This document shows positions 8,834 to 59,483 of a DNA stretch of 64,000 nt, one piece after another. The stretch is from an uncultured bacterium (GTDB lineage Bacteria > Patescibacteriota > Dojkabacteria > J137): positions 445,511 to 509,510 of the forward strand of contig OY969472.1 in assembly GCA_963700155.1 (NCBI GenBank). The letters run 5' to 3'. The position numbers were made by a program, and so were the translations under genes. The stretch's first letter is position 1, and every line of letters begins with the position of its first letter. Under the pieces are notes generated by a model that saw only the letters and a program-made list of their open reading frames with translations, had not been told where the DNA came from and did not search any database.

Positions 8834-9370
8834 ATGAGTAATAATACAATTGAACTTGAAAATATAACCGAAGCTATATATTACATCAGAGGGATGAAGG
8901 TAATGTTGGATTTTGATCTTGCATCATTGTATGGAGTTGAGAACAGAGCTCTAAAACAGCAGGTTCGAAGAAATTTGGATAGATTCCCAGAAGATTTTAT
9001 GTTTGAGCTAACTAGGGAAGAGTGGACTGAGCAAGTCACAAACAGTGACTTGCTCAAAAAATTTAAATTTATAAAGACACCTCCTTTTGCATTTACAGAG
9101 CAGGGAGTTGCGATGCTATCTAGTGTTCTTCGAAGTACACGAGCTATCCAAATTAATATCTCTATTATGCGCGCTTTTGTTGAAGTTAGGAAATCAATTG
9201 GCAGAAATAATGTTATTACCAAAAAATTATCTGAGCTCGAAAAGCGCGCGGATCTAAAATTTCTTCAATATGATGAACAGTTCAGAATTATTATGGAAAT
9301 AATACAAGGAATGAATAATGAAGATTCAGAAAAAAATAATCGAAAGATTGGCTTCAAAACAGATTTATAG
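8834..9370 (+). CDS. ORF6N-domain protein (phage/plasmid-associated anti-repressor-like)
   Basis: KVMLDFDLASLYGVENRALKQQVRRNLDRFPEDFMFELT ... FAFTEQGVAMLSSVLRSTRAIQINISIMRAFV matches the conserved core of the ORF6N/KilA-N-like family. Confidence 0.7.
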   Translation: MSNNTIELENITEAIYYIRGMKVMLDFDLASLYGVENRALKQQVRRNLDRFPEDFMFELTREEWTEQVTNSDLLKKFKFIKTPPFAFTEQGVAMLSSVLRSTRAIQINISIMRAFVEVRKSIGRNNVITKKLSELEKRADLKFLQYDEQFRIIMEIIQGMNNEDSEKNNRKIGFKTDL

Positions 9371-36755: not shown

Positions 36756-36991
36756 AAGCCATTTTTGTCAAAAACATTCTTTTTTAGTAAAAAATCTGTT
36801 TCCAACTATGGACATTCCTTATTAAATATGCTATAAATCTAGCACGTCTTTTTTCAGTAGAATTATTTTGAACAAATTCACTATTAATCTCTTTAAAATC
36901 CAAAAAATATAAAATTTATAGGGTGTGAACACTAAGGTAAGTTTGCGCCCTTTTTCTATTTATAATTTAATTAAATACATTATTAAATATA

Positions 36992-39900: not shown

Positions 39901-40416
39901 GGAATAGATTATGAAGAAAAAGTTGATTTATATGATGGTAGAACAGGGGAAAAATATAACCAGAAAGTCACAGTTGGAATGAAATACTTCTTTAAGCTAG
40001 ACCATTTGGCTGACCACAAAGTGCATGCAAGATCAACCGGTCCATACACTTTAGTTACACAACAACCATTAAGAGGTAAAGCACAACGAGGAGGGAGAAG
40101 ATTTGGAGAAATGGAAGTTTGGGCACTTGAAGCACATGCAGTGCCAAATGTATTGCATGAAATGCTTACTATCAAATCTGATGATGTTGTTGGAAGAGCA
40201 GCAGCTTATAAAGCAATAATTTCAGGAAACAAGATCACAGCACCAAATGTTCCAGAATCATTTAACGTTTTGGATAAGGAATTAGCAGGATTGGCTATCA
40301 AGTTAGATAAGATTAATGCCGAATATGATGAAGAGAGAAGCGAAATGGCATTAGAGGAGATTGTTGATTCAGTTGGAGCACAAGATGCACCAGATGTAAT
40401 GGATACAACATTTTAA
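36992..40416 (+). CDS. rpoB: DNA-directed RNA polymerase subunit beta
   Basis: The ORF is open from a GTG at 36925. The first ATG at 36992 gives MASLTKRITLSKNPIPHLDMDYLEAQKSFFREFMENG... The beta-subunit regions are conserved throughout (for example ...GNELVTRDIPGVGEWALRNLDEDGIVRIGA..., ...RMNLGQLIETHIG..., ...RSTGPYTLVTQQPLRGKAQRGGRRFGEMEVWALEAHA). Confidence 0.9.
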
Positions 40417-40428
40417 TTTAGATTTTAT

Positions 40429-40453
40429 GCGGCGAGTCAGAATGACTCGCCGC
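40429..40453 (+). promoter_or_regulatory. GC-rich hairpin in the rpoB-rpoC intergenic spacer (GCGGCGAGTC-agaat-GACTCGCCGC); candidate attenuator or processing site
   Basis: A 10-bp perfect GC-rich stem in an otherwise AT-rich 68-nt spacer. It is not followed by a clean U-tract, so partial termination or an RNase III site is more likely than a full terminator. Confidence 0.4.
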
Positions 40454-40484
40454 AAATTATTAATATTTTTAACCAATTAAAACT

Positions 40485-43400
40485 ATGCTTAAGGATTTTA
40501 ATGCAGTAAAGATCACAATCGCTTCTCCTCAAGATATTATGAACTGGTCTCATGGAGAGGTAACAAAAGCAGAGACAATCAACTATAGAACTTTCAAGCC
40601 TGAACCAGGGGGATTAATGGCTGAAGAGATATTCGGTCCTACTAAGGACTTTGAATGTTACTGTGGTAAATACAAAAAGATTAGATACAAAGGTATTATT
40701 TGTGACAGATGTGGAGTTGAAATTACACACAAAAGAGTAAGAAGAGATAGAATGGGTCACATTAAGCTAGCTTCTCCAGTTTCTCATGTATGGTTCTCAA
40801 ATGGAGTTCCTAATAGATTAGCTTTAATTCTTGATATCCCTCAGAAGAAATTAGAAACAGTAATTTATTATGCAAGATATGTTGTTACAAATGTTGAAGA
40901 AGAAGAAAGAACTAAAGCTTTAGAGAGCTTGAAAGAATATAAACAAAATGAAATGGATGAGTTAGCAAAAGAATTAGATGACAAAATTGCTGAGGTTAAG
41001 ACCAAATTTGAAGAAGAGGCAACAGAAGCAAAGAAAGCTACAAAAGATAAGAATAAATTGGAACTTCAGTTAGAAAGATTAAGAAATAATGAAAAAACTG
41101 AAGTAGCAAGAATCAGATCTGCATTCAAACAAAGACAAGATAACATTGATAAAAAATTTGTTGATTTAAAGAGCTTAATTTCTGATATAAAATCAGGCTT
41201 TACACTATCTGAGGAAGATTATCAGCTTTTAGAGAGCTATAGTTTCTATTTCTTTACTGCAGGAATGGGAGCAGAAGCAATAAAAGAGCTTTTAGAGAAA
41301 TTAGATATCACAGTGGAGATTAATCACTTAGAAGAAGAGCAGAAATCTACAAGATCTCAGATTAAAAAATCTCGAATTGTTCAAAGATTAAGAATACTTA
41401 AGGGTTTACAAAAATCAGGTGTAAGTCCAGCATGGATAGTTTTAGATATTTTGCCTGTTATTCCTCCAGATATAAGACCTATTGTCCAACTTCCAGGAGG
41501 TAGATTTGCAACTTATGATTTAAATGATCTTTATAGAAGAGTAATAAATAGAAATAACAGATTGAAGAGACTTATTTCACTTGGAGCACCAGAAATCATT
41601 TTAAGAAATGAAAAAAGAATGCTTCAAGAATCTGTTGATTCATTATTAGATAATAATCATAAACCAGGTTCACCTTCGTTAAACTCAAGAGGATTACCAT
41701 TCAAATCATTATCGGACATGTTAAGAGGTAAGCAAGGTAGATTTAGACAGAACTTACTAGGAAAGCGGGTTGATTATTCGGGATCTGCGGTCATTGTTCC
41801 AGGACCAGAATTAAACTTCGACCAATGCGGATTACCAAAGAATTTGGCCTTAGAATTATTCAAACCATTCATTATTAGAGAATTAATTGCCAGAGGATTA
41901 GCTGCAAATCCAGCAAAAGCTAAGTTAGTATTTGAATCAAAACCAGATGAAGTTTGGGATATTTTAGAAGAAGTAAGTAAAAACAGACCAGTCTTATTGA
42001 ATAGAGCTCCTACTTTACATAGGCAGTCAATTTTAGCTTTCTATCCAGTTTTAATTGAAGGTAACTCAATTAGATTACATCCAATGACATGTGCTGGATT
42101 CAATGCTGACTTTGATGGAGACCAAATGGCAGTTCATTTACCATTATCAGAAAAAGCTGTTGAAGAAGTAAAATTAAGAATGTTTGCAAAAGAGAATCTT
42201 TTATCTTTAAGAGATGGGACCCCATTATTCAATGTGTCAAAAGATATGGCAATGGGAATTTACTTTTTAACTTTAGTAAGAGATTACCCTGAAGATAAAA
42301 TTAATATATATTCATCTGTTGAAGATTTGATGGCATCTTACCATTTGAGACAAATTAGATTTGATCAAAAAGCGAGATTACTTCTAAATGGAGAGATAAT
42401 TGAGACTTCAGCTGGGAGAGCATTGTTTAATCAAATTATGCCTGAAGATTATCCTTATGTAAATACAACCCTAAACAAAGGAGATATATCAGTATTATCA
42501 GCTGATTTGTTTAACAAATATGGTAGAGACAAGGCAATCGAAGTTCTCGATCATATTAAATTATTAGGATTTAAATATGCTGGAAGACTAGGATTCTCTG
42601 TTTCAATGCAAGAATTCAAATTCGGTGGAGAAAAGATTATTGATGAAAGATTAAAAGAATACAGTAAAAAAGAAGATGAATTGATTAATGAATACAATGA
42701 CGGTTTAATTACTGAGAATGAATTAAGATGGATTAAAAGAGATGTATGGCAAAAAGACGCAGACAAGATGCAGGAAGATGTTTGGGAATTAGCTAAAGTA
42801 AAATCTGTAAATTTAATGGATCTTCAAAATTCTGGAGCTGTTTCAGTAAGTTCATGGGTAAAAAAGATTTCAGGAGTTTCAGGATATGTTACAGATCCAT
42901 CTGGAAATATTGTAGATCTTCCATTAAAAAGTAACTTTGAAAAAGGATTCACAAATTTTGAATATTTTGTTGCTGCAAAAGGAGCAAGAAAATCATTCGC
43001 AGATGTTGCTTTAAGAACTGCTGATTCAGGATATTTAACAAGAAGACTTCATGATGTTGCACAAGATGTAATTACAAATGCAGAGGATTGCGGTACAGAT
43101 GAAGGTATAATTGTAGAAAGATCTGCAAAAAGATTACAAAGCTTTAAGAACAGAATTAGAGGTAGATATACTGCAGAAGATATTTCAGATCCAAAGACAG
43201 GGGAAATTATTGTAAAGAAAAATGAACCTATAACATTGGAGGTTGCTGAAAAAATTAATGCAATTGAAGAAATTCAAGGTATTAAAGTAAGAAGTCCATT
43301 AGCCTGCAAGATAGCACATGGAATGTGTCAAAAATGTTATGGATTTGATAATAGTACTGGAAAACTTGTTGATATTGGAGAAGCAGTAGGAACTATTGCA

Positions 43401-44438
43401 TCTCAAGCTTTAGGAGAACCTACAACTCAGCTTACTTTAAAGAGTAAATCAGACGCTAGAGCTGCAAAAGCAGACGTTACACAAGGTTTGCCAAGAGTTG
43501 AAGAACTTTTAGAAGCAAGAACACCAAAAGCACTAGCATTATTAGCTGACTTCGATGGAAAAGTAAAAATTATCGAAGATAAGAAGAAAGTTATAGTAAG
43601 AATTTCTGCTTTGAAAGAAGTTACAAAAAAATATGAAGTTAAGAATGAAAAGAATATCACTGTGAAGAACAATGCTAAAGTCAAAGCAGGAGACGTCTTG
43701 GCTGTAGCTAATAAGAAAGAATTAAATGCAGAATTCTCAGGAACAGTAGAAGTTGAAGGTAATACAATCACTTTAAAAGGTAAGAAAGATGTAGAAGTTG
43801 AAAAAGAAACAGATCAATTAGCAAACTTAATGGTAAAGGATGGAGATGAAGTTAAAAGAGGAGATCAATTAACATTCGGTTCTGTAGATCCTAAAGAACT
43901 AGCAAGGTTAAAAGATATGTATTTTGCTCAAAAGTATATTGTTGCAGGGGTACAAGATGTTTATGGAATTCAAGGATTAGAAGCTGATGATAGACATTTG
44001 GAAATTATTGCAAGACAAATGAGCAGATATGGATTAATCGTTGATAACTTTGGGAGCGAAACATTCTTACCGGGAGACTATGTTGATATCCTTGATATTG
44101 GAGAAGAAAATAAGAAATTAAAGGAGCAGGGAAATAAAGAAATTAAATACGATAGAGTATTATTAGGAATAACAAACTCAGCAATACGAACAGAAAGCTT
44201 CTTATCAGCTGCTTCGTTTGAACAGCAAGTTAGAGTTTTGACTGATGCAGCCTTGATTGGAAAGGTTGATCATTTGAGAGGATTGAAAGAAAATGTTATA
44301 ATCGGCAGACCTGTTCCATTAGGAAATGAGTTAAAAAAGAAATTAGGTATGATAGTTGATGAGGAAGAGGAAATGGAGGCAGAAGATAAGATGACTATTG
44401 ATGAACCAGGAAAAGGGAATGATGAATTCTTAGTTTAA
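40485..44438 (+). CDS. rpoC: DNA-directed RNA polymerase subunit beta'
   Basis: It has the N-terminal zinc motif CYCGKYKKIRYKGIICDRCGVE and the catalytic NADFDGDQM. 1317 aa. Confidence 0.92.
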   Translation: MLKDFNAVKITIASPQDIMNWSHGEVTKAETINYRTFKPEPGGLMAEEIFGPTKDFECYCGKYKKIRYKGIICDRCGVEITHKRVRRDRMGHIKLASPVSHVWFSNGVPNRLALILDIPQKKLETVIYYARYVVTNVEEEERTKALESLKEYKQNEMDELAKELDDKIAEVKTKFEEEATEAKKATKDKNKLELQLERLRNNEKTEVARIRSAFKQRQDNIDKKFVDLKSLISDIKSGFTLSEEDYQLLESYSFYFFTAGMGAEAIKELLEKLDITVEINHLEEEQKSTRSQIKKSRIVQRLRILKGLQKSGVSPAWIVLDILPVIPPDIRPIVQLPGGRFATYDLNDLYRRVINRNNRLKRLISLGAPEIILRNEKRMLQESVDSLLDNNHKPGSPSLNSRGLPFKSLSDMLRGKQGRFRQNLLGKRVDYSGSAVIVPGPELNFDQCGLPKNLALELFKPFIIRELIARGLAANPAKAKLVFESKPDEVWDILEEVSKNRPVLLNRAPTLHRQSILAFYPVLIEGNSIRLHPMTCAGFNADFDGDQMAVHLPLSEKAVEEVKLRMFAKENLLSLRDGTPLFNVSKDMAMGIYFLTLVRDYPEDKINIYSSVEDLMASYHLRQIRFDQKARLLLNGEIIETSAGRALFNQIMPEDYPYVNTTLNKGDISVLSADLFNKYGRDKAIEVLDHIKLLGFKYAGRLGFSVSMQEFKFGGEKIIDERLKEYSKKEDELINEYNDGLITENELRWIKRDVWQKDADKMQEDVWELAKVKSVNLMDLQNSGAVSVSSWVKKISGVSGYVTDPSGNIVDLPLKSNFEKGFTNFEYFVAAKGARKSFADVALRTADSGYLTRRLHDVAQDVITNAEDCGTDEGIIVERSAKRLQSFKNRIRGRYTAEDISDPKTGEIIVKKNEPITLEVAEKINAIEEIQGIKVRSPLACKIAHGMCQKCYGFDNSTGKLVDIGEAVGTIASQALGEPTTQLTLKSKSDARAAKADVTQGLPRVEELLEARTPKALALLADFDGKVKIIEDKKKVIVRISALKEVTKKYEVKNEKNITVKNNAKVKAGDVLAVANKKELNAEFSGTVEVEGNTITLKGKKDVEVEKETDQLANLMVKDGDEVKRGDQLTFGSVDPKELARLKDMYFAQKYIVAGVQDVYGIQGLEADDRHLEIIARQMSRYGLIVDNFGSETFLPGDYVDILDIGEENKKLKEQGNKEIKYDRVLLGITNSAIRTESFLSAASFEQQVRVLTDAALIGKVDHLRGLKENVIIGRPVPLGNELKKKLGMIVDEEEEMEAEDKMTIDEPGKGNDEFLV

Positions 44439-44443
44439 TGATT

Positions 44444-44470
44444 TTAGGGAGGTTTCGAAGAAACCTCCCT
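44444..44470 (+). terminator. Hairpin downstream of rpoC (AGGGAGGTTTC-gaa-GAAACCTCCCT)
   Basis: An 11-bp perfect stem 6 nt after the rpoC stop. It is followed by a weak T-run (tattta). Confidence 0.5.
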
Positions 44471-44507
44471 ATTTAAGCAATATTTAATTAATTAGTAAAA
44501 TATTTAA

Positions 44508-44963
44508 ATGGCTCGAACATCACAACTAGTAAGAAAAGGAAGAAAACCTAAAAAAGGTGTCACAAGATTTAAGGGTTTACTTTTTTCAGAAAAAACAAAG
44601 TTTAAGGCATTGCATTTTAATTATAATGCCGTTAAAAACAGATACTTTAAAAAGGATAATCCTTTAAAAAGAGGGGTTTGCATTTCAGTAAAGACAATGA
44701 CACCAAGAAAACCAAACTCAGCGTTAAGAAAAATTGCTAGAGTAAGATTGTCAAATAGACAAGTAGTTACTGCATATATCCCTGGAGAAGGGCATAATTT
44801 GCAAGAACACTCAGTAGTTTTGGTAAGAGCAGGAAGAAAACCTGATCTTCCAGGAGTTAGGTATACAATCGTTAGAGGTGTATATGATACTGCTCCTGTA
44901 GATGCAAGAAGGCAAGCAAGAAGTAGATATGGAAGAAAGGCAGTTAAAAAGGTAGCTAAATAA
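44508..44963 (+). CDS. rpsL: 30S ribosomal protein S12 (with a ~25-aa N-proximal insertion relative to typical S12)
   Basis: ...[62 protein letters not shown]... is the canonical S12 core. The N-terminal [57 protein letters not shown] is longer than usual. Confidence 0.92.
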
Positions 44964-45072
44964 ATTACAAATCTAAGATTAAGGAGAGTAATCTCTTTCC
45001 ACTAAAGGGGTGAAGAAATTCTTAATTCTAAGTTCAATATTAAAAAAATTTATTAATTATTATTTTATATAA

Positions 45073-45540
45073 ATGAGAGGTAAACAAGCACCTGTTAGAA
45101 AAATAAAACCTGACGAAATTTATAATAGTGAGTTAGTTTCAAAATTCATTAATTATGTAATGCAAGATGGTAAAAAAACAACAGCACAAAAAATTGTTTA
45201 TACAGCAATTAAAGAGCTTCAAGATAAAACTAAGACAAAAGGAGTCGAAGCTTTCGAAAAAGCAATAGATAATGTAAAACCAAAGATCGAAGTCAGATCA
45301 AGAAGAGTTGGCGGAGCTAACTTTCAAGTTCCTGTTCCTGTTTCAGACAGCAGACAAACCGCTTTAGCAATGAAATGGATAATTGAAGGTGCAAAATCAA
45401 CAAGAAAAACCACACCATTATACGTAAATATGGCTCAAGAATTGGTAAATGCATATAATAAAGAGGGTTCAGCAATTAAGAAAAAGGAAGATGTGCATAA
45501 AATGGCTGATGCTAATAGAGCCTTTGCTCAGTTCGCTTAA
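45073..45540 (+). CDS. rpsG: 30S ribosomal protein S7
   Basis: 155 aa. ...RVGGANFQVPVPVSDSRQTALAMKWIIEGAKSTRK... is the S7 signature. Confidence 0.9.
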   Translation: MRGKQAPVRKIKPDEIYNSELVSKFINYVMQDGKKTTAQKIVYTAIKELQDKTKTKGVEAFEKAIDNVKPKIEVRSRRVGGANFQVPVPVSDSRQTALAMKWIIEGAKSTRKTTPLYVNMAQELVNAYNKEGSAIKKKEDVHKMADANRAFAQFA

Positions 45541-47291: not shown

Positions 47292-47954
47292 CTAGGCTTC
47301 AAACCCATATTGGAAAACAAAGTAAGAAGAAATTGTATGATGTGGATTTGAGATTTCCTCTAAAAATGAGAACCCGCACATTTCCATACCTCTTTTGAAC
47401 ATATCTTTTATTTCTACCGGCTGGTTATTAAAGTAATCATCTCCAATCTCAACTATTATTTTTGCTCCATACTTTAAGTTTGAACCTAACCTCTCGAAAA
47501 TATTAACTAGTTTTAGTACATAACTTTCGTATGATTCGATTGAATTAAAATCAAACTCAGAATCTGTGTTATCGGGTTGAATAGTAAATGGAGGAGAAGT
47601 AACAATAGCATCAAATTTCATCATTCTTAAGTCAACTTTTCTACTATCATCAAAAATAAATTCTGGTTTTCTAAAGTCTTCATTACTTTCTTTTAATAGC
47701 CTCATGAGATTACGAAGTATATAAGGCCTTTTGTTAAAATCTTTTTCAACTGACACACTTCGATAACCATGTAAACCAGCCCAGAAGCCCAAAGTTCCAT
47801 ATCCAGCAAAAGGATCTAAAACTAAACTATCCTTAGGCAAATTTAAATAATCAAAAAAATATTCCAGTTGCCCATCAGAAAATCCTACCTCTAATCTATC
47901 AAAAATATCCAGAGCTTGAATATCATTATTTTTTATAATTGCATCATTTATCAT
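47292..47954 (-). CDS. SAM-dependent N-methyltransferase, Trm11/RlmL (UPF0020)-like with S-P-P-F motif; RNA (m2G-type) or DNA amino-methyltransferase
   Basis: Motif I is VLDPFAGYGTLGFWAGLHG. It is followed about 70 aa later by AIVTSPPFT, a (D/N/S)PP(Y/F) amino-methyltransferase motif. This gamma-like motif order is as in Trm11/RsmD. There is no THUMP domain. Confidence 0.5.
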   Translation of the reverse strand: MINDAIIKNNDIQALDIFDRLEVGFSDGQLEYFFDYLNLPKDSLVLDPFAGYGTLGFWAGLHGYRSVSVEKDFNKRPYILRNLMRLLKESNEDFRKPEFIFDDSRKVDLRMMKFDAIVTSPPFTIQPDNTDSEFDFNSIESYESYVLKLVNIFERLGSNLKYGAKIIVEIGDDYFNNQPVEIKDMFKRGMEMCGFSFLEEISNPHHTISSYFVFQYGFEA

Positions 47955-48022: not shown

Positions 48023-48964
48023 ATGGGAATCTTGGAAAACATACCTTTTGTAGTAAATAATTCAAAATATGTAAATATTAATTTTGCAGAAATTGATAAC
48101 TTCTCTAACTGTAATCTAGAATTTAAGACTGATAACTCAATACTTGAGTATAAATTTAAAAATACAAAAAACACTTTAGAGTTCCTATTTATGTTTTCAT
48201 TATTAAATTTTTGTTTTTGGAATCTTCTTGAAAGTTGGGAATTCACAATCAAAAATAAAACCTATCGTAGAAGTGAAGCAATGTTAAAAGCTTTGAAGCT
48301 TTTTTACTCAAAAAGACTTAACTACAAAACTTCGGATGTATTGTTTCAACTTAGTGACAGACGTGTTTTAACTGAAGCTTTATTCGGAGCAAAAAATCTT
48401 CAATTAATTGATAAGAGGACGGAGAATCTTCGTGAAGCAGCAGTTATATTAAATGAAAATTTTGGTGGATATTTCTATAAATTTTTATATAATCATAAAC
48501 TTGAAGCCCCAACATTAATAAAAGATATATTAGATAATTTCCCTAATTTCAGTGATGAGAGTAATTATAAGGGTAAAAGCATTACCTTTAACAAAAGAGT
48601 TCAGGCTCTAGTCGCGTATATTTATTATTGCAATTTAAAGGATTATCAAATTATCAAAATTGATTATTTGACCGCTTTAGCTGATTATAGACTCCCTCAA
48701 ATACTACGAGTATTAAAGATCCTTAACTATTCCGAAGAATTAACAAATATTATCGATAAAAAAGATTTAATTCCTGCGGGTTCAGAAATGGAGGTTGAAA
48801 TAAGGGCTAATTCTGTATGGGCTGTTGAATTAATAAAGCAAGAGTTACAACAAAGAAGGAATTATATTAATGCAATAGACATTGATAACTTACTTTGGAA
48901 TAAAGCTAAAAAATCAGACTTAAAATTAAAACCTCATCATTTAACAGTAACTTCGAATTACTAA
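48023..48964 (+). CDS. DUF2419/Qng1-family protein (queuosine-nucleoside/queuosine-5'-phosphate glycosylase; queuine salvage)
   Basis: Blocks recalled from human C9orf64/Qng1 align: LNFCFW..ESWEFT (hs LNFCFWPDPGWEVT), DESNYKGKSITFNKRVQALV (hs DEAPYKGRPVTFYKRAQILV), LTALADYRLPQILRVL (hs LTMFADYRVPQIL), IPAGSEMEVEIRANSVWAVELI (hs IPHGDRTEIEIRGCSLWAVELL), C-terminal KPHHLTVTSNY (hs HHPHHRTLTLY). Confidence 0.6.
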   Translation: MGILENIPFVVNNSKYVNINFAEIDNFSNCNLEFKTDNSILEYKFKNTKNTLEFLFMFSLLNFCFWNLLESWEFTIKNKTYRRSEAMLKALKLFYSKRLNYKTSDVLFQLSDRRVLTEALFGAKNLQLIDKRTENLREAAVILNENFGGYFYKFLYNHKLEAPTLIKDILDNFPNFSDESNYKGKSITFNKRVQALVAYIYYCNLKDYQIIKIDYLTALADYRLPQILRVLKILNYSEELTNIIDKKDLIPAGSEMEVEIRANSVWAVELIKQELQQRRNYINAIDIDNLLWNKAKKSDLKLKPHHLTVTSNY

Positions 48965-50333: not shown

Positions 50334-52142
50334 TTATAGACTTGTAATCTGGTAAAGATTATCTAATTTAAACCCTCTCTTATCATAATATTCTCTTGTT
50401 CCAATGCTAGAAATAACTGCGAGTTTCTCAAAACCTTTTTCCTTCGAAATTTCTTTCGCTTTCTCAATTAATTTTGTCCCTAAACCAAGGTGCTGCGCTT
50501 CACCAGCTGAATCTTTTTTAAGTTCTAAACTTGGACCATAAACATGAACTTCCCGTATAACAGCGCAGCCACTTAGCTCAGAAGTTATTGGATTCTCATT
50601 TGAATCAGGAACAGAAAGTCGTAAAAAACCTGCTATTGATCTATCTAAAGCAATATACTGCAAGAAATATTCAGTCGTTAATTCTGTTCTATATTCAATA
50701 ATATCAAGCTTTAAATCATCAATCGTTACTTTTCTCCCTTTGATCTCTCTGTTCCTAATATTTGGATTTTTCCTGCCTTCATCTTTAAGTTTATATTCAG
50801 CAACTTCCCGAAGATTTGTAGTTTTATTTCCACCTTCAATTTCTTGAGAAGGAATATCTCGAATAATTCTTGTTAATCTACAATATTCTGGAGTATTCTC
50901 CATACAGTCTGCTATTAAATTTATAAGATCGTCTGCAGAATATGGTTGATATTTTCCTTCCAGAAATAAATTATAAAGCTCAGTGTTTTTTATTACCGAA
51001 GTAGGATAAATTTTTAATTCATCTGGCTTATAACTCTCCGATTCAAATAATTCTTTATAGACTTGAAGATCAATCTTAGGAGTTGCACCATAAAGGTTCG
51101 GCATTATATGTGCATGGATTTTAAAACCACCTGCTCTCAAGAGTTGAAAAGCTTTAGAAGTCTCAGCTCGGTGCTCACCACGCTTATTTAAATCGCTAAT
51201 ATTGTCATCCAGAGTCTGAATTCCTATCTGAATCTTTGTAGCACCGAGCTTTCGAAGATCATAAACCTCTTTCTCGGTGATTGTATCAGGGCGAGTCTCC
51301 AAGACGAGCCCAACACAACGGCTTTTTCCATTAGAATTTATATTTTGTTCTGAAACTAATTGTTCCCAAAGTTCATCTAAAGAAATTTTGGATAAATCAT
51401 CCTCAGAGATAAATTTTGAAATATATTCTTTGAACTCAGGGGTTTGAAGAAGCTGGTTATATGGTTTATCTCCAGTTTTTTTTCGAAGCTCATCATTAAA
51501 ATCATTTTCCAAGTCCTTTGTTATATCTACCTGTGATAAATCCTGATCATTTTCTTTAGAATTTTTTGTATGAAACTCATTCATTGCCCTAAAACATTCT
51601 TTAATAAACCAGACTTGATACTTTTTTGGATAATATACCCAAGTACCACCAAGAATTAGCAATTCTATTTTCTCAGTCGGATGCCCAATATTATCTAGCG
51701 CTTTTAAGCGATTGTAGACTTGAATATACGGATTAAATCTGTACATTAAAGCTCTCTGAGCACCTGGTTCAGTTGCGATATAGCTTTTAGGCATTCTTAC
51801 ATCATTAGGGCAAAATATGCAGTTCCCAGGGCATGCAAATGGCTTTGTAAGTACAGTTACTGTTGTAACTCCCGAAATTGTTCGCGTTGGCTTCATGCGG
51901 ATTTGAGATTTAAGTTCTTCAATTTGAGATCTTAAATTTTCATTATACTTATCTTCCCCAGCTAAAAACTCAAATCCGCGAATTAACTGATCTCTGCTAA
52001 AGATTTGGTTTTTATCTTTTGGATATTTCTTCAGAATTTTATCTAAAGCATGTTTTGAGAAAGTATCTAAAGACAAGGTTTCATCCAAAATTCCCTTTAG
52101 CTCAATTCTATATTTTTCAGGTTTAAAGTCATAATTCTTCAT
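50334..52142 (-). CDS. Elongator Elp3-like tRNA uridine(34) carboxymethyl/acetyl-transferase (radical-SAM + GNAT)
   Basis: The radical-SAM cluster motif is FACPGNCIFCPN. KSYIATEPGAQRAL and QIGIQTLDD are Elp3-type motifs. The C-terminal GNAT domain is (IREVHVYGPSL...AQHLGLGTKLIEKAKEISKEKGFEKLAVISSIGTREYYDKRGF). 602 aa. Confidence 0.8.
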   Translation of the reverse strand: MKNYDFKPEKYRIELKGILDETLSLDTFSKHALDKILKKYPKDKNQIFSRDQLIRGFEFLAGEDKYNENLRSQIEELKSQIRMKPTRTISGVTTVTVLTKPFACPGNCIFCPNDVRMPKSYIATEPGAQRALMYRFNPYIQVYNRLKALDNIGHPTEKIELLILGGTWVYYPKKYQVWFIKECFRAMNEFHTKNSKENDQDLSQVDITKDLENDFNDELRKKTGDKPYNQLLQTPEFKEYISKFISEDDLSKISLDELWEQLVSEQNINSNGKSRCVGLVLETRPDTITEKEVYDLRKLGATKIQIGIQTLDDNISDLNKRGEHRAETSKAFQLLRAGGFKIHAHIMPNLYGATPKIDLQVYKELFESESYKPDELKIYPTSVIKNTELYNLFLEGKYQPYSADDLINLIADCMENTPEYCRLTRIIRDIPSQEIEGGNKTTNLREVAEYKLKDEGRKNPNIRNREIKGRKVTIDDLKLDIIEYRTELTTEYFLQYIALDRSIAGFLRLSVPDSNENPITSELSGCAVIREVHVYGPSLELKKDSAGEAQHLGLGTKLIEKAKEISKEKGFEKLAVISSIGTREYYDKRGFKLDNLYQITSL

Positions 52143-52192
52143 CCGCTAATTTTAACATGCAGACTTAAACATAAAACTGATAAAATACATAT

Positions 52193-52945
52193 ATGAACTT
52201 GTATTCTAAATATGCAAAAGAGTTTTCTAACACACGAAAGTTACCATGGGCGGGCTGGGCAGTTATGGCTGAAAAGCTAAATCTGCAAAAGTTGCCCAGC
52301 CCGCTTAAAATCTTAGATCTTGGTTGTGGAAATGGCAGATTTGCGAAATATCTTTTAGAAAATGAAATCTCAGTTAATTATACAGGGATTGATAAATCTG
52401 CCGGGTTAATCTCAATCGCCCGAAATCAACTTTCAAAATTAAGATCTCTTGCTGACAGTGATCTTACCGAAAAGTATCAAGGAGTTAACAAAGATATCAA
52501 TTCTTTTAGAAATTCTAATTTCAAATTTTTAAGATTCAACCTCGAAAAAGATCCTTGGGAATCAGAACTTGACGGAGATTTTGATTTAATAGTCATATTT
52601 GGATTAATGCATCACATGTCATCTTTTAACTCAAGATTAGAGCTTTTAAAAAAATCAAAATCTCTTTTATCATCAAATGGATATTTAGCTGTTACTTACT
52701 GGCAATTTGGGAAACTAGATAGATATCAATATAAAATGCTTTCTGCAAACAAGCATATTGATAAATATAGCGATCAAGATTACTCACTCCCATTTGGCAA
52801 TACCAATGCAGTAAGATTCTGTCATTTCACAACCGAAGATGAAATAAAAGAACTTGAGAAACAATCTTCTTTAAATCTAAAGTATAATTTTGAAGCAGAC
52901 GGCAGGGAAAATAATGAGAATATTTATCGAATTTATTCTAAATGA
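52193..52945 (+). CDS. Trm9/ALKBH8-MT-like tRNA (cm5U->mcm5U) methyltransferase
   Basis: YAKEFSNTRKLPWAGW (Trm9: HFSQTRYKPWP), ILDLGCGNGRF (Trm9: IDVGCGNGKY), and MHHMSSFNSRLELLKK...GYLAVTYWQF (Trm9: VHHWSTRERR...ALIYCWALEQ). It is divergently adjacent to Elp3. Confidence 0.6.
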   Translation: MNLYSKYAKEFSNTRKLPWAGWAVMAEKLNLQKLPSPLKILDLGCGNGRFAKYLLENEISVNYTGIDKSAGLISIARNQLSKLRSLADSDLTEKYQGVNKDINSFRNSNFKFLRFNLEKDPWESELDGDFDLIVIFGLMHHMSSFNSRLELLKKSKSLLSSNGYLAVTYWQFGKLDRYQYKMLSANKHIDKYSDQDYSLPFGNTNAVRFCHFTTEDEIKELEKQSSLNLKYNFEADGRENNENIYRIYSK

Positions 52946-53583
52946 GATTCAGCACAAGACAATTAAAAACTCAACTATATATCTTTAGGCAAAAATACTT
53001 TACTTTAAGTACTTTTTTAAAGATATCATTTACATTAATAGTTATCTTCTTGGTATTACCTTTTTTTCTGGTTTTAATTGTTACAAGCGGTTATCAAAAA
53101 AAATTAATAAATTCTGTTGATAATATTCCTGAAGAACTTTCTACAGCAGTTTTAATCTCTGATAATAATAAGGATAATTTAAAATATCTTTTAGATTTAG
53201 CACAGAATGCTTATCAAGATAGAAAAATTAACTATCTTTATATTTATTTAATCGGTGATTCTAAGCAAGCAAAAGATTCTGATATTGAAGGTTATCTTGA
53301 TAAAATCCCCTCTGCTGAAATTAAAATAAATCGTGACAACAATACACCTTATGATATTTGTAATAGTACAAAAGATGTGTACAATTTGAGTAAATTTATT
53401 GTTTTTTCATTTACATCAACTGCAATAAGAACGACTTTCATCTGTAATAATATGAATTTATATTCAAAAGGAATTATCCCTAATGTTGATGAAGATTCAC
53501 TTGGAGTAACTTCTGCAAGTTTTACAGACTATTTAAATGATATTAATAAAATCTTTTTAGGATTTGAACTTCCTCTCAAGTAA
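52942..53583 (+). CDS. Membrane protein, possibly DUF218 (SanA/YdcF/ElyC-like)
   Basis: N-terminal TM (FLVLPFFLVLIVTSG). The segment ...NRDNNTPYDICNSTKDV loosely fits the DUF218 S-x-NT-x-EN motif. 4-nt overlap with the upstream gene. Confidence 0.35.
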   Translation: MRFSTRQLKTQLYIFRQKYFTLSTFLKISFTLIVIFLVLPFFLVLIVTSGYQKKLINSVDNIPEELSTAVLISDNNKDNLKYLLDLAQNAYQDRKINYLYIYLIGDSKQAKDSDIEGYLDKIPSAEIKINRDNNTPYDICNSTKDVYNLSKFIVFSFTSTAIRTTFICNNMNLYSKGIIPNVDEDSLGVTSASFTDYLNDINKIFLGFELPLK

Positions 53584-56651: not shown

Positions 56652-59483
56652 ATGGCTTTACCACAGGGTCCTTACAATCCAAAAGAATCAGAAGCAGAAA
56701 TGCTTAAATTCTGGCTGGATAACAAATTTTATAAACCAGAATATAATCCAAAAACAGATAAGGTCGAAACTACAGAAGAGATGAAAGCGGACGCGCGTAA
56801 GCCATGGGCTTTAATTTGCCCTCCACCTAATGCTTACGCGCGTCCGCACATCGGCAATATCTCTGGTTATGCATACCAAGATGCAATGGCAAGATATGCA
56901 AGAATGAATGGTAAAAAAGTTTTGGTACTTCCAGGAAAAGATCATGCTGGGCTTGAAGGTGAAGGAGTTTTTGTTAGAGAAGTTTTAGAAAAACAGGGTA
57001 GATATAAATTCGATATGAAGAGAGAAGACTTCTATAACGAAATGATGGAGTTTTTCGAAAAGAATATGGATATAGCTTTAAAAGATGAAAGAGAAATTGG
57101 GCTTTCTGCAGATTTCGATAGAAATACTTTTACACTTGATCCTGATATAGTCGAAACTGTTTTAGATACTTTTGTTGAAATGTATAAAGCAGGAATGATT
57201 TATAAAGGAGTTAGAATTGTTAACTGGGACCCAAAAGCAAGAAGCGTTATAGCGGACAATCAATGTGAAAGAGAAGAACGAGAAGGAACTTTGTATTATA
57301 TAAAATATCCGATAGTTGATAGTTCTGAATTTATTACAGTAGCAACAACAAGACCAGAAACTATGTTTGGCGATACTGCAGTTGCTTTTAATCCAGATGA
57401 TAAAAGATATAAAAATTTAATTGGTAAAAAAGTAAGAATTCCACTAACCGATATTGAAATACCAATAATTACCAGTTTTAGAGTTTTAACGGATTTTGGC
57501 ACAGGAGCCTTAAAAATTACTCCAGCTCATGCACAAGATGATTACCAAATTATGATGGAGTGGAATAGCCAAAATCCGGATAACAAGATTAGCTATCGAA
57601 ATGTTATAGGACAAGATCTTAAACTAACAGGAGCTGTTCCTGCAAAATATAAAGGAAGAAAGTACAAAGAAGCACTACCTGAAATAATTGAAGATTTAAA
57701 ACAAGCTGGGAATTATGTAAAAGAAGAAAAAATCAAACAAAATATATTAATATCCGAAAGAACGAAAGCTATTGTTGAACCAGTAATTTCTTCACAATGG
57801 TATTTGAAATACGACAAAGAAGACCACAATATTAAAGAAGCTGCAATGAAAATGGTTCAAAATGGAGAAGTTAAGATTCATCCCGAGAATATGGTTCAAA
57901 AATTCAATCACTGGATGGAGAATTTAAGAGATTGGGCAATTTCGAGATCATTGTGGTGGGGATATAGACTTCCTGTTTGGTATGCTGGCCAGATTTCCGA
58001 AGAAATTGATGAAAATGGACAGGTCAAAGAATTTATTGAAATTAATGGTAAGAAAGAAGAGTTAGACTATTCAAATCCAGACCACCTAAGAGTTCAAAAA
58101 CTCTCTCCTGATATAAATAGTATCAACTTAATTTTAATCCCAGGTAAGCATGGTTATGCACACAAAGAACTTTATCCTACAATAAAAACTAAATTTAAAA
58201 ACACCTTAGAAATTAGAGTTAACAATATAGACAGCCCGAGTACCAATGATTATATAGAGGCTCTAAAGAAAATAGAATTTAACCAAAAAGATATAGTTTT
58301 AGCCCATTCACTCGGGTGTAGAGCCATTATTAGGTACATTTTGGATAATAAACTCAAGTTAAAACATCTTATACTTTTAGCTCCCGGTGCCAGATTAGAG
58401 GGTAGAAAAGATGGGAAAGATTCAAAATACCTGTATCTAATTACTAGTATTAAAGACTATAACAAATTAAGCAATTTAGTTGAAAAAATTACAGTAATAT
58501 ATTCAGATGATGATCCATTAGCATCAAAAGAGGATTTTGAAAAATTTATATTACTTTTAGGAGATAAAGCTGAAGGCATCCTAGAACAAGGTAAGGGGCA
58601 TTATTGTGAAGAGAAAGGAACATCTGATTCCAAAATATTAGATAGTATTCTTGCTCCCTACTCATCTGAACTTACAAACTCAATATGGCACCAAGATGAT
58701 AACGTTTTAGACACATGGTTTTCATCAGGACAGTGGGTTTATGCAATATTATCAAAATACAACTTAATGGATACATTCTTCCCTACAAATGTTTTAGTTT
58801 CAGCTTCAGATATTTTAGAAAATTGGGATTCAAGAATGATGATGTTTACTTACTTCAAACATAAAAATATTCCATTTAAAAACTTATTCTTAACAGGATT
58901 AGTTCTCGGAAAAGACGGACAAAAGATGAGCAAATCTCGAGGTAATATAGTTGATATTGATAGAGTAAAAGATATATTTGGAACAGACTCATTAAGAATG
59001 GCATATTTCTATCAAAATTCAGCAGGTGGATCTTATGTAATTTCTGATGACAAGTTAAAAAACTTTAAACAATTTAATAACAAACTTTGGAACGCTTCAA
59101 AATTTGTCTTAATGAATACAGAAAACTTAAAAGAATTTGAGGGAGATGAGTCTATTAGTAAGTGGAGCAATGAACTTTTACAATATATTGCTGATCTAAA
59201 AATTAAAATTACTGAAAATATAGAAAATTATGAATTTGGATATGCGACAGAAACACTTTATCAGGAATTCTGGCATACTTTCTGTGATAAATATATAGAA
59301 GAAAGCAAAGTACACTTATTAAATCAATCTGAAAGAATGGAAGTTCAAAGTACACTTTTATATACACTTAAAGAGTTTATAAAAATGCTTCACCCATTTA
59401 TCCCATTTATAACTGAAAAGATCTGGCAAGAAGTTCCTAAAAATAACTATGACCACAAAAGTTTAATGTACACCACTTGGTAA
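56652..59483 (+). CDS. valS: Valyl-tRNA synthetase with an in-frame inserted YdeN/RBBP9-type alpha/beta serine-hydrolase domain (~aa 485-675)
   Basis: ValRS hallmarks: ICPPPNAYARPHIGN (HIGH-type), the editing-domain GTGALKITPAHAQDDYQI, ISRSLWWGYRLPVWY, DTWFSSGQW, and KMSKSRGNIVD. Between LPVWY... and ...DTWFSS lies a segment of about 190 aa. It contains IPGKHGYAH, VLAHSLGCRAIIRYIL (the nucleophile elbow), LLAPGA, IYSDDDPLAS (Asp) and GKGHYCEEKGTSD (His). These match B. subtilis YdeN (LVAHSLGC..., SKDDQIVPF, HGGHFLEDEGFTS). This ValRS has no long C-terminal coiled-coil tRNA-binding domain. Confidence 0.85.
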   Translation: MALPQGPYNPKESEAEMLKFWLDNKFYKPEYNPKTDKVETTEEMKADARKPWALICPPPNAYARPHIGNISGYAYQDAMARYARMNGKKVLVLPGKDHAGLEGEGVFVREVLEKQGRYKFDMKREDFYNEMMEFFEKNMDIALKDEREIGLSADFDRNTFTLDPDIVETVLDTFVEMYKAGMIYKGVRIVNWDPKARSVIADNQCEREEREGTLYYIKYPIVDSSEFITVATTRPETMFGDTAVAFNPDDKRYKNLIGKKVRIPLTDIEIPIITSFRVLTDFGTGALKITPAHAQDDYQIMMEWNSQNPDNKISYRNVIGQDLKLTGAVPAKYKGRKYKEALPEIIEDLKQAGNYVKEEKIKQNILISERTKAIVEPVISSQWYLKYDKEDHNIKEAAMKMVQNGEVKIHPENMVQKFNHWMENLRDWAISRSLWWGYRLPVWYAGQISEEIDENGQVKEFIEINGKKEELDYSNPDHLRVQKLSPDINSINLILIPGKHGYAHKELYPTIKTKFKNTLEIRVNNIDSPSTNDYIEALKKIEFNQKDIVLAHSLGCRAIIRYILDNKLKLKHLILLAPGARLEGRKDGKDSKYLYLITSIKDYNKLSNLVEKITVIYSDDDPLASKEDFEKFILLLGDKAEGILEQGKGHYCEEKGTSDSKILDSILAPYSSELTNSIWHQDDNVLDTWFSSGQWVYAILSKYNLMDTFFPTNVLVSASDILENWDSRMMMFTYFKHKNIPFKNLFLTGLVLGKDGQKMSKSRGNIVDIDRVKDIFGTDSLRMAYFYQNSAGGSYVISDDKLKNFKQFNNKLWNASKFVLMNTENLKEFEGDESISKWSNELLQYIADLKIKITENIENYEFGYATETLYQEFWHTFCDKYIEESKVHLLNQSERMEVQSTLLYTLKEFIKMLHPFIPFITEKIWQEVPKNNYDHKSLMYTTW

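Follow-up and report, generated by a model that had tools for sequence, protein, structure and literature searches.

A divergent Elp3 and Trm9-like methyltransferase gene pair in a Patescibacteria chromosome, a predicted bacterial module for tRNA wobble-uridine modification

Introduction

Wobble-uridine modifications of the mcm5U type, together with the Elongator/Elp3 and Trm9-Trm112 enzymes, are held in the literature to be eukaryotic and archaeal, and the corresponding task in bacteria is assigned to MnmE/MnmG. Among archaea, mcm5U has been documented in Haloferax volcanii. Archaeal Trm9 has been reported only from Sulfolobales and Halobacteriales, where it works with Trm112 (HvoTrm9-Trm112), and both eukaryotic and archaeal Trm9 require this partner. 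Dehalococcoides is the only bacterial source of Elp3 given in reviews, which also note that evidence for xcm5U derivatives in bacteria is lacking; a 2020 review finds no biochemical or mass-spectrometric data on any bacterium with Elp3. Here, we analysed a bacterial locus in which an Elp3 gene lies head to head with a gene for a methyltransferase of the Trm9 type.

Results

Locus and genomic context

The window, by which we mean the whole 64,000-nucleotide stretch of DNA that was analysed, has a GC content of ~30% and represents a bacterial chromosome, as it carries rpoB-rpoC-rpsL-rpsG (36925–45540) and the LeuRS gene (56652–59483). The nearest named relatives are Candidatus Dojkabacteria and other Patescibacteria. 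Both ORFs described in the first-pass annotation were found at their positions, and every motif quoted there was confirmed in its place (Table 1). The intergenic region that separates the two genes has a GC content of 26%. This spacer had been described as a shared promoter; we identified no promoter-like site within it, and the scan did not rise above background. Co-regulation of the two genes from this region would thus be a prediction.

Table 1. Features of the Elp3–methyltransferase locus (positions in the window)
Feature	Position	Strand	Basis
Elp3 gene (ORF 1, 602 aa), radical-SAM + GNAT/KAT, predicted tRNA U34 carboxymethylase, "long" bacterial form	50334..52142	-	TIGR01211, Pfam, PDB matches
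KAT/GNAT domain of Elp3	50352..50678	-	PF00583; R530-E531-V-H533, Y585/Y586
Acetyl-CoA motif Q550-H-L-G553-L-G555 (QHLGLG)	50478-50495	-	alignment
Linker at the zinc-site position (RCRCIRC in archaeal/Dehalococcoides Elp3); here NPNIRNREIK, no Cys	50739..50768	-	alignments
Clade-specific acidic insertion in the rSAM domain, 64–65 aa (aa 198–262)	51357..51551	-	unaligned against MinElp3 and DmcElp3
Radical-SAM [4Fe-4S] motif FACPGNCIFCPN, C104/C108/C111, CX3CX2C, aa 102–113	51804..51839	-	alignment
N-terminal extension of Elp3, aa 1–81, before the conserved RMKPTRTISG block	51900..52142	-	alignment
AT-rich spacer separating the start codons of the divergent genes	52143..52192	.	50 nt; head-to-head layout kept elsewhere
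Trm9-like class I SAM methyltransferase gene (ORF 2, 250 aa), divergent bacterial subgroup	52193..52945	+	profiles, hhalign, bridge
N-terminal Trm9-type motif YSKYAKEFSNTRKLPW, Y4 (= ScTrm9 Y18), R15 (= ScTrm9 R29)	52202..52249	+	hhalign register
SAM motif I ILDLGCGNGRF and acidic D67 (= ScTrm9 D72)	52310..52393	+	alignment
MHHMSS (H140/H141 = ScTrm9 H115/H116) and YWQF (W170 = ScTrm9 W145)	52607..52708	+	alignment
Substrate-side C-terminus: D196, F201 (= ScW168), R208 (= ScR241), C210 (= ScY243), H211, E217, N243 (= ScN271)	52778..52921	+	hhalign register

The minus-strand gene encodes an Elp3 with conserved catalytic residues

The product of the minus-strand gene matched TIGR01211 with a score of 481 bits (cutoff 350; E = 3.8e-144), with residues 71–597 aligned to positions 45–517 of the 522 in the model. 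Pfam identified Radical_SAM, Radical_SAM_C and Acetyltransf_1 (PF00583) domains in this protein; the last of these spans residues 489–591 (E = 1.1e-5) and corresponds to the C-terminal GNAT domain recognised in the first-pass annotation. [quoted passage not shown] At the sequence level, this similarity is far beyond chance and identifies the protein as a genuine Elp3, which would be expected to form cm5U34 in a tRNA-dependent manner.

The first-pass annotation had made its reading dependent on the presence of the radical-SAM and acetyl-CoA-binding residues, and all mapped residues are present in the alignment. The three radical-SAM cysteines are found in 62/62 aligned bacterial Elp3s and in MinElp3, and their spacing is the same in DmcElp3. 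Residues implicated in acetyl-CoA binding and hydrolysis are K150, K266, Q461 and Y517 in MinElp3 and K77, K193, E386 and Y441 in DmcElp3. In the radical-SAM half of the window Elp3, the equivalent lysines are K158 (= MinK150) and K341 (= MinK266), both conserved in 62/62, and in the KAT domain we identified E531 (= DmcE386/MinQ461), H533 (= DmcH388/MinH463) and Y585 (= MinY517). Together with the cysteines, the QHLGLG motif and Y585/Y586, these residues are kept in at least 57 of the 62 bacterial sequences; for E531, H533 and Y585, the figure is at least 60 of 62 each.

Outside the active site, the window Elp3 shows three distinguishing features. The N-terminal extension is similar in length to the N-terminus of MinElp3, and its sequence is kept among the long bacterial forms. 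In archaeal and eukaryotic Elp3s, a long, basic N-terminus takes part in binding tRNA, and MinElp3 requires its own for this purpose; the extension of the window Elp3 contains 16 K/R and 15 D/E and is thus not net basic. The insertion in the radical-SAM domain (8 K/R versus 17 D/E) measures ~40–130 residues in long bacterial forms and is absent, with only 2–3 residues at this position, from short forms and MinElp3. Finally, the positions of the zinc-site cysteines are occupied by three asparagines, and cysteines are kept here in only 30–40 of the 62 bacterial Elp3s. Because eukaryotic Elp3 is also devoid of these cysteines, the zinc site does not define the Elp3 family as a whole.

The divergent ORF belongs to a bacterial family related to Trm9

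The plus-strand ORF was less straightforward to assign. Pfam and NCBIfam returned only generic methyltransferase matches, and a search with the single sequence ranked Trm9 (E = 0.009) below Hen1 (2.3e-4) and others. The profile of the subgroup to which the window protein belongs likewise placed 3dtn (51.2 bits) and 8rdl (50.9 bits) ahead of Trm9 (45.6 bits), which came third, yet gave the only full-length alignment. With the profile of the broader, 42-member family, Trm9 (5cm2_Z) became the first match in the PDB and was aligned over its full length (74.7 bits, E = 5.9e-20; next match 59.5 bits). Comparison by hhalign of this family with 24 fungal Trm9s gave a probability of 99.8% (E = 2e-30, 202 columns), and that of the window subgroup with fungal Trm9 gave E = 2e-21.

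In the reverse direction, the 250-residue methyltransferase was the only window ORF matched by an HMM of fungal Trm9. Its score of 44.2 bits is just above that of the best generic PDB methyltransferase (41.8 bits), a value that no non-Trm9 methyltransferase in the PDB exceeds; the divergent subgroup as a whole scored 17–55 bits, and the Trm9-proximal bacterial members 82–123 bits. These proximal members provide a full-length transitive bridge, with E = 1.9e-48 for its first step and E = 3.9e-41 for its second. The C-terminal region, which lies outside the SAM-binding part, found no match in the PDB when used alone, and its comparison with Trm9 gave only P = 0.02. The bridge extends over this region as well, from the window subgroup to the proximal bacterial group (E = 2.4e-16) and from the latter to fungal Trm9 (E = 1.1e-9). 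Because intermediate bacterial members link the window methyltransferase to fungal Trm9, we regard the proteins as homologous and the 250-residue ORF, judged from its sequence, as a divergent member of a bacterial Trm9-like family. The AlphaFold model of the methyltransferase has a pLDDT of 90.2, and fold searches do not discriminate among methyltransferases.

The residues that distinguish Trm9 are largely retained. The motifs FSNTRKLPW, ILDLGCGNGRF, MHHMSS and YWQF occupy residues 11–19, 40–50, 139–144 and 169–172, respectively. In yeast Trm9, D72, R29, H116, W145, R241 and N271 are essential for SAM binding and cm5U34 positioning (PMC4678810). The R29A substitution lowers activity ~20-fold, D72A abolishes SAM binding, H116A and W145A are inactive, and Y243A leaves ~10% of activity (PMC4678810). 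For W168, a tryptophan exposed to solvent, stacking against an adjacent nucleotide has been proposed. Of the eight residues essential in the yeast enzyme, six are identical in the window methyltransferase (R15, D67, H141, W170, R208 and N243) and are kept in 40–42 of the 42 family members. For individual positions, the counts are 42/42 for Y4, H140, H141, W170 and H211, 41/42 for R15 and R208, and 40/42 for N243. F201 is a conservative replacement, with tryptophan in 25 and phenylalanine in 17 family sequences, so that this position is always aromatic. The position of Y243, within the RYYH motif of yeast Trm9, is substituted in the window protein (RFCH); in the family it is occupied by C in 28 sequences, Y in five, V in four, L in two and A in one.

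The gene pair is conserved across bacterial phyla

Starting from the methyltransferase, we found an Elp3 gene within 10 kb in 65 of 80 species loci, corresponding to 65 of the 74 that are informative in having enough upstream DNA. The two genes diverge in all but one of these paired loci (64/65), and the median length of the spacer is ~87 nt. Independently, a Dehalococcoides-type Elp3 used as the seed was accompanied by a divergent Trm9-like methyltransferase in 45 of 52 informative loci; in one of these, the Elp3 shares 92% identity with the crystallised DmcElp3. Thus, adjacency holds in ~88% of informative loci from two independent seeds, over several phyla and down to 24–30% protein identity, and the pairwise divergences of the two proteins are correlated (r = 0.87). 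The first-pass annotation described Elp3 as rare in bacteria, which matches the literature and not our data, as we found the pair in Patescibacteria, Chloroflexota, Acidobacteriota, Myxococcota and others. This synteny is decisive evidence for functional coupling of Elp3 and the methyltransferase. Because the divergent and the Trm9-proximal subgroups hold the same place beside Elp3, we argue that they share one function.

Synteny, above all, together with the family profile, the transitive bridge including the non-SAM C-terminus and the active-site residues, establishes the Trm9 assignment. The first-pass annotation would have abandoned the pathway if generic methyltransferases outscored Trm9. 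Single-sequence and subgroup-profile scores do slightly favour generic enzymes, and the broader evidence favours Trm9, which makes this criterion too crude.

Discussion

We consider it likely that the two genes form a two-step module for the modification of tRNA wobble uridine, in which Elp3 makes cm5U34 and the methyltransferase esterifies it to mcm5U34. In the first step, Elp3 would combine radical chemistry based on [4Fe-4S] and SAM with acetyl-CoA bound in the GNAT domain, and so attach a carboxymethyl group to C5 of U34 in some of the tRNAs. Like the archaeal and Dehalococcoides enzymes, it would do so by itself, with no other Elongator subunit. In the second step, the adjacent methyltransferase would use SAM to form the methyl ester on the carboxyl group of cm5U34, and the resulting mcm5U34 might be thiolated further by functions encoded elsewhere. 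We infer both activities and the tRNA substrates, with mcm5U34 as the predicted product of the window methyltransferase. The core of the first-pass reading, a divergent pairing of Elp3 with a Trm9-type methyltransferase that implies a cm5U to mcm5U module, is upheld. A complete pathway, as described there, would be a prediction, and no Trm112-like partner was found nearby.

Several observations count against this reading, and some of them also speak for an alternative in which the pair does modify U34 and the methyltransferase differs from canonical Trm9 in substrate or end product. It might accept only an intermediate that is already thiolated or 2'-O-methylated, or a different side chain made by Elp3, and the final nucleoside would then not be plain mcm5U. 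The methyltransferase subgroup is divergent, with its low range of scores on the fungal Trm9 HMM and generic methyltransferases ranked above Trm9; the equivalent of Y243 is a cysteine in the window protein and in most of the family; and the Elp3 partner is a variant with the 64-residue insertion and no zinc site. Neither a Trm112-like motif in the six-frame translations of the window, nor a Trm112 Pfam match among the window ORFs scanned, nor a Trm112-like gene as a conserved neighbour in 81 loci was found, and the methyltransferase may be independent of this activator. However, the equivalents of R29, H115/H116, W145, R241 and N271, for which a role in positioning the carboxylate of cm5U and the uracil ring has been proposed, are retained and near invariant, and the divergent and Trm9-proximal subgroups both occupy the Elp3-adjacent position. 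We therefore regard a different end product as unlikely.

Two further explanations would separate the locus from wobble uridine altogether. The pair might act on another RNA, a protein lysine or a small molecule, with its resemblance to the tRNA enzymes confined to the fold. Natural-product pathways likewise contain trios of radical-SAM, GNAT and methyltransferase functions, neither a tRNA gene nor a further tRNA U34 gene was seen near the pair within the window, and the in vitro activity of DmcElp3 was reported to be very weak (2020 review). Nevertheless, the response of Elp3s from bacteria, archaea and eukaryotes is specific to tRNA, and peptides of histone or tubulin and nucleic acids of other kinds do not elicit it (PMC6367351), all mapped Elp3 catalytic residues are conserved, no biosynthetic-cluster genes were found alongside the pair, and no third conserved neighbour was identified in 81 loci; a target other than tRNA U34 thus appears decidedly improbable. 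That the methyltransferase is a generic class I enzyme with no functional relation to Elp3, its position and Trm9-like motifs being coincidental, is very unlikely and the least probable of these explanations. It would fit the exclusively generic Pfam and NCBIfam matches, the ranking of Trm9 in single-sequence and subgroup searches and the non-discriminating fold searches, but it conflicts with the adjacency recovered from both seeds, the co-divergence of the two proteins, the full-length profile bridge and the conservation of Trm9-specific residues outside the SAM site.

The mcm5U pathway itself is already known, and the literature searched yielded no report of a bacterial Trm9 half. The Elp3 is already named as such by annotation pipelines, and some relatives carry the label TRM9 at JGI, so that the gain lies in recognising and documenting the module and not in a new kind of enzyme. 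Since many bacterial phyla keep a Trm9-type methyltransferase gene divergently beside that of Elp3, including the crystallised DmcElp3 type, a full cm5U to mcm5U route is predicted in bacteria. More tentatively, we propose as a possibility that the Elp3–Trm9 pair serves many bacteria as a self-contained system for the wobble uridine, with a Trm9-like enzyme working without Trm112, and that it replaces or supplements MnmE/MnmG in genome-reduced Patescibacteria and several other phyla. mcm5(s2)U would then be a genuine bacterial modification, and the two genes a unit that is inherited and probably exchanged. If true, this would be relevant to the question of whether the pathway of eukaryotes and archaea is ancestral or was shared with bacteria. 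The small, probably monomeric Elp3 and Trm9 enzymes could also serve mechanistic work.

Comparison with known systems

The window methyltransferase is predicted to share the class I SAM methyltransferase fold with eukaryotic Trm9-Trm112 (Saccharomyces cerevisiae and Yarrowia lipolytica, PDB 5CM2) and the methyltransferase domain of ALKBH8. The common elements are the N-terminal Y...FS.TR..W, the HH motif, the tryptophan after strand 5, the aromatic residue and R.(Y/C)H of the putative C-terminal hairpin, and the terminal asparagine, and all these enzymes are linked functionally to Elp3 as the maker of the Trm9 substrate. Unlike eukaryotic Trm9, to which it is only ~21% identical, the window protein has a cysteine at the Y243 position and an insertion of ~30 residues after helix B (aa 79–108, low pLDDT), and its gene is bacterial, paired with Elp3 on the chromosome and without a detectable Trm112 gene nearby.

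As in archaeal systems, Elp3 stands alone without Elp1, 2 and 4–6, and in Sulfolobus solfataricus the Trm9 orthologue is also reported to be clustered with Elp3. The present pair differs from the archaeal one in its bacterial host and in a divergent layout with a spacer below 100 nt that recurs across many bacterial phyla. The window Elp3 has the rSAM and KAT architecture of DmcElp3 (Dehalococcoides mccartyi; PDB 5L7J/6IA6) and MinElp3 (Methanocaldococcus infernus; PDB 6IA8), with the mapped acetyl-CoA and active-site residues conserved. It has the CX3CX2C spacing of DmcElp3, and Dehalococcoides-type Elp3 likewise lies head to head with a Trm9-like methyltransferase. The N-terminal extension of ~81 residues is shared with MinElp3 and not with DmcElp3, whereas the acidic rSAM insertion and the absence of the three zinc-binding cysteines set the window protein apart from both. 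The bacterial MnmE/MnmG enzymes (cmnm5U/nm5U) serve the same purpose of equipping the wobble uridine with a side chain at C5. CmoM, which converts cmo5U to mcmo5U, likewise belongs to a C5 side-chain pathway and carries out a SAM-dependent methyl-esterification of a wobble-uridine carboxyl group.

Genomic setting of the Elp3-methyltransferase pair

The window belongs to a bacterial chromosome of ~30% GC. The ORF list and a motif check recovered the Elp3 and methyltransferase ORFs, and every motif quoted for them in the first-pass annotation, in the positions that it had assigned to them. The start codons of the two ORFs face each other and are exactly 50 nt apart. The named relatives of both proteins are mostly from Candidatus Dojkabacteria and other Patescibacteria, and exact matches to the two proteins lie on a 1.14-Mb contig. 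The tRNA scan and the Rfam scan of the window returned zero matches, and genes for MnmE, MnmG, MnmA or Ncs6 were absent among the window ORFs scanned. A 213-aa ORF begins in a 4-nt overlap (ATGA) with the methyltransferase stop codon, a layout that points to co-transcription of these two ORFs; neighbour clustering across 81 loci showed that this ORF is not kept beside the pair elsewhere.

Features of the window and their coordinates
Feature	Position (nt)	Strand	Description
TsaC-TsaE fusion	7628-8704	-	358-aa ORF; Sua5/YrdC (TsaC) domain (E 5.7e-44) fused to TsaE (E 6.7e-28)
ORF6N-domain protein	8834-9370	+	E 2e-31
Very large ORFs	13806-35889	+	row of ORFs of 1068, 1755, 375, 1824 and 2177 aa
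N6_N4 DNA-methylase-like ORF	47292-47954	-	220 aa; E 8e-11
Queuosine-salvage gene	48023-48964	+	PF10343 Q_salvage, E 2.4e-59; 1.4 kb from Elp3
rpoB-rpoC-rpsL-rpsG operon			upstream of pair
Elp3	50334-52142	-	602-aa ORF
Methyltransferase	52193-52945	+	250-aa ORF
213-aa ORF	52942-53583	+	predicted transmembrane stretch; without Pfam/NCBIfam match
Leucyl-tRNA synthetase	56652-59483	+	943 aa; downstream of pair; Ser_hydrolase domain (PF06821, E 2.3e-10) inserted at aa 494-654

Conservation of the divergent arrangement

The strongest evidence for an Elp3-methyltransferase module is synteny. Individual look-ups of eight homologues gave seven loci with an adjacent Elp3-type gene. A methyltransferase-seeded scan, restricted to one genome per species, gave 80 loci from distinct species that span Patescibacteria (Dojkabacteria, Saccharibacteria-labelled genomes, Paceibacterota, Gracilibacteria and others), Chloroflexota, Acidobacteriota, Myxococcota, Fermentibacteria and more. 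Elp3 was located within 10 kb of the methyltransferase at 65 of these 80 loci. Of the 15 negative loci, six had <1.4 kb of DNA upstream; without these six, the share is 65 of 74 informative loci. The Elp3 gene was divergent and upstream at 64 of the 65 positive loci, with a median distance of ~87 nt between start codons. The single co-directional locus (L073, 336-2646), from a Gracilibacteria MAG, has Elp3 immediately upstream of the methyltransferase with a gap of ~52 nt in an operon-like arrangement.

An independent scan of metagenome contigs, seeded with a Dehalococcoides-type Elp3 sequence, identified a divergent Trm9-like methyltransferase at 45 of 52 informative loci. One of these 45 (L091) encodes an Elp3 that is 92% identical to the crystallised Dehalococcoides mccartyi enzyme (DmcElp3). 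Pairwise identities of Elp3 and of the methyltransferase were correlated across 61 loci (r = 0.87).

Neighbour clustering at 81 loci returned the two genes and antisense shadow ORFs, with no third conserved partner gene. Four loci (L020, L042, L044 and L052), all from large-genome Acidobacteriota (“Multivorans”/Thermoanaerobaculia), carry a lineage-specific ORF of ~280-400 aa resembling short-chain dehydrogenases/reductases (GGGSGIG motif) between Elp3 and the methyltransferase; it lies ~1 kb upstream of the latter and is co-directional with it.

Elp3 is conserved in its functional residues

The window Elp3 scored 481 bits against the NCBIfam model TIGR01211 (cutoff 350) and contains Radical_SAM, Radical_SAM_C and GNAT domains. 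Its best solved relatives in a PDB search were Elp3 from Methanocaldococcus infernus (MinElp3, 1e-94), DmcElp3 (1.6e-89) and eukaryotic Elp3 (1e-80). Functional residues defined by experiment (PMC6367351) were transferred via an alignment of MinElp3 with 62 bacterial Elp3s. The cluster cysteines C104, C108 and C111, together with K158 (MinElp3 K150) and K341 (MinElp3 K266), were present in all 62 sequences, and E531 (DmcElp3 E386, MinElp3 Q461) in 61 of them; H533, the acetyl-CoA motif QHLGLG and Y585/Y586 (MinElp3 Y517 and its neighbour) were likewise conserved. The loss of radical-SAM or acetyl-CoA residues that the first-pass annotation had named as refuting its pathway claim was therefore not observed.

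Three features mark the window Elp3 as a variant. It is extended at the N-terminus by ~81 aa, as in archaeal Elp3 and unlike DmcElp3; it contains an acidic 64-aa insertion (aa 198-262) restricted to a “long” bacterial clade that includes members from Acidobacteriota and Myxococcota; and all three zinc-site positions are occupied by asparagine. Across the methyltransferase-seeded (L010-L089) and Elp3-seeded (L091-L170) loci, bacterial Elp3 occurs in two forms, long with this insertion and short.

The methyltransferase as Trm9 or a generic class I enzyme

The first-pass annotation had tied its pathway claim to a better match of the methyltransferase to Trm9 than to generic class I enzymes, and our comparisons fell on both sides of this question. 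Pfam and NCBIfam scans of the 250-aa protein (METHYLTRANSFERASE) returned generic class I models only. Neither library returned a Trm9-specific model; these libraries therefore cannot settle the question, and we dropped them as arbiters. A generic assignment is favoured by the single-sequence PDB search, where Trm9 from Yarrowia lipolytica (5cm2_Z, E 0.009) ranked behind Hen1 and BamL, the matches to which span the SAM motif only. The profile of the window protein's own subgroup (A3) also ranked Trm9 third (45.6 bits) after two generic enzymes (51.2 and 50.9 bits), with Trm9 as the only full-length alignment in that search. When the profile of 42 family members (A1) was searched against the whole PDB, Trm9 was first with 74.7 bits (E 5.9e-20), the next match scored 59.5 bits, and the alignment extended from the N-terminal TR..PW motif through the RY.H hairpin. 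Profile-profile comparison (hhalign) of the methyltransferase family with fungal Trm9 sequences, gathered by a search seeded with the Y. lipolytica fragment from the PDB alignment, gave 99.8% probability and E 2e-30 over 202 columns, and A3 on its own gave E 2e-21. Since comparisons between different class I families often reach high hhalign probabilities, the result was calibrated with the fungal Trm9 profile. On this profile, the best non-Trm9 PDB methyltransferase scored 41.8 bits and most scored <35; the window methyltransferase, the sole window ORF matched, scored 44.2.

The 61 Elp3-adjacent bacterial methyltransferases were bimodal on the fungal Trm9 HMM, with 24 in a “Trm9-proximal” group (68-111 bits) and 37, including the window protein, in a divergent group (17-55 bits). 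The substrate-side C-terminal region of the window subgroup (profile A4) had no significant match in the PDB, and its direct hhalign comparison with Trm9 gave only P = 0.02. The C-terminal link to Trm9 was recovered only through a transitive bridge, from the window subgroup to the proximal bacterial group (E 1.9e-48 full length, E 2.4e-16 C-terminal region) and from the latter to fungal Trm9 (E 3.9e-41 and E 1.1e-9, respectively). Spanning both the full length and the C-terminal region, this solid bridge places the window methyltransferase in a bacterial Trm9 family, as one of its divergent members. The Trm9-over-generic claim is supported by the A1 profile and the bridge, and not by the single-sequence and A3 rankings. 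The best “generic” match, PDB 3dtn (Methanosarcina mazei MM_2633), is a methyltransferase of unknown function with an IHH motif and an aligned arginine in the N-terminal region; instead of being unrelated, it could be a further enzyme that is carboxyl-directed or related to Trm9.

In yeast Trm9 (ScTrm9), alanine substitution of R29, D72, H116, W145, W168, R241, Y243 or N271 abolishes or strongly lowers function (PMC4678810). In the hhalign register, R15, D67, H141, W170, R208 and N243 of the window protein are identical to yeast residues, H140 corresponds to H115 and Y4 aligns with ScTrm9 Y18. W168 is replaced by F201, a position that is aromatic throughout the 42-member family, and Y243 is replaced by C210, with cysteine in 28 of the 42 members. 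The mapped positions are nearly invariant across this family. The putative contacts to the cm5U carboxylate and the uracil ring are thus kept, with one family-wide substitution.

Promoter and candidate partners

The first-pass annotation had also proposed that the pair is co-regulated from a shared promoter in the 50-nt spacer. The promoter scan of the window gave 27 promoter-like sites versus 20.4 +/- 4.4 expected, which is background level, and none of the 27 was located in the spacer; a shared divergent promoter was therefore not demonstrated. The terminator scan of the window returned no sites. We infer co-regulation only from the conserved head-to-head layout. A Trm112-like gene was absent from the motif scan of the window, from the window ORFs scanned and from the conserved neighbours at 81 loci.

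The nearby queuosine-salvage gene is another gene for modification of the tRNA wobble position (position 34), and the methyltransferase has a Q_salvage gene in its vicinity at one further locus (L004). As tblastn identified such linkage at only one of 89 loci, we rejected it as a conserved association.

Other features of the window

In the TsaC-TsaE ORF, two components of the t6A37 tRNA-modification pathway are part of a single protein. The editing domain of the leucyl-tRNA synthetase was detected only as a short remnant (aa 258-303); a LeuRS gene is also located ~3.7 kb downstream of the methyltransferase at a related locus (L001). The very large ORFs contain Peptidase_S74 (endosialidase chaperone), an H-type lectin domain, DUF2341 and 6-9 Laminin_G_3/concanavalin-like repeats, and probably encode giant proteins of the cell surface or adhesins. 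The ORF6N domain occurs in phage antirepressor-like proteins; the ORF6N protein and the N6_N4 methylase-like ORF may be remnants of mobile elements or restriction-modification systems.

Comparison with known Elp3-Trm9 systems

The pairing noted in the first-pass annotation is real, and its reading as a module was essentially right: the predicted module probably forms cm5U at tRNA U34 and converts it to mcm5U. The Elp3s of close relatives already carry that name in NCBI's pipeline, which labels the methyltransferases no more specifically than “class I SAM-dependent methyltransferase”; JGI automatic annotation assigns TRM9 to several relatives. DmcElp3 was described as a “rare example” among bacteria (PMC6367351), a 2020 review confined bacterial Elp3 to Dehalococcoides and stated that xcm5U derivatives were without evidence in bacteria, and a 2026 paper places Elp3 in “numerous bacteria”. 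In the literature searched we found neither a described bacterial Trm9, nor that phrase itself, nor an Elp3 in Patescibacteria. The value of the finding lies in the breadth and tightness of the bacterial Elp3-Trm9 linkage, in the apparent absence of a Trm112 partner and in a prediction that is open to direct testing. Eukaryotes are known to make mcm5U by Elp3 followed by Trm9, evidence from Haloferax supports this route there, and clustering of the Elp3 and Trm9 genes has been reported for Sulfolobus; the pair is a new member of a known pathway, in a new domain of life, and not a new kind of system.
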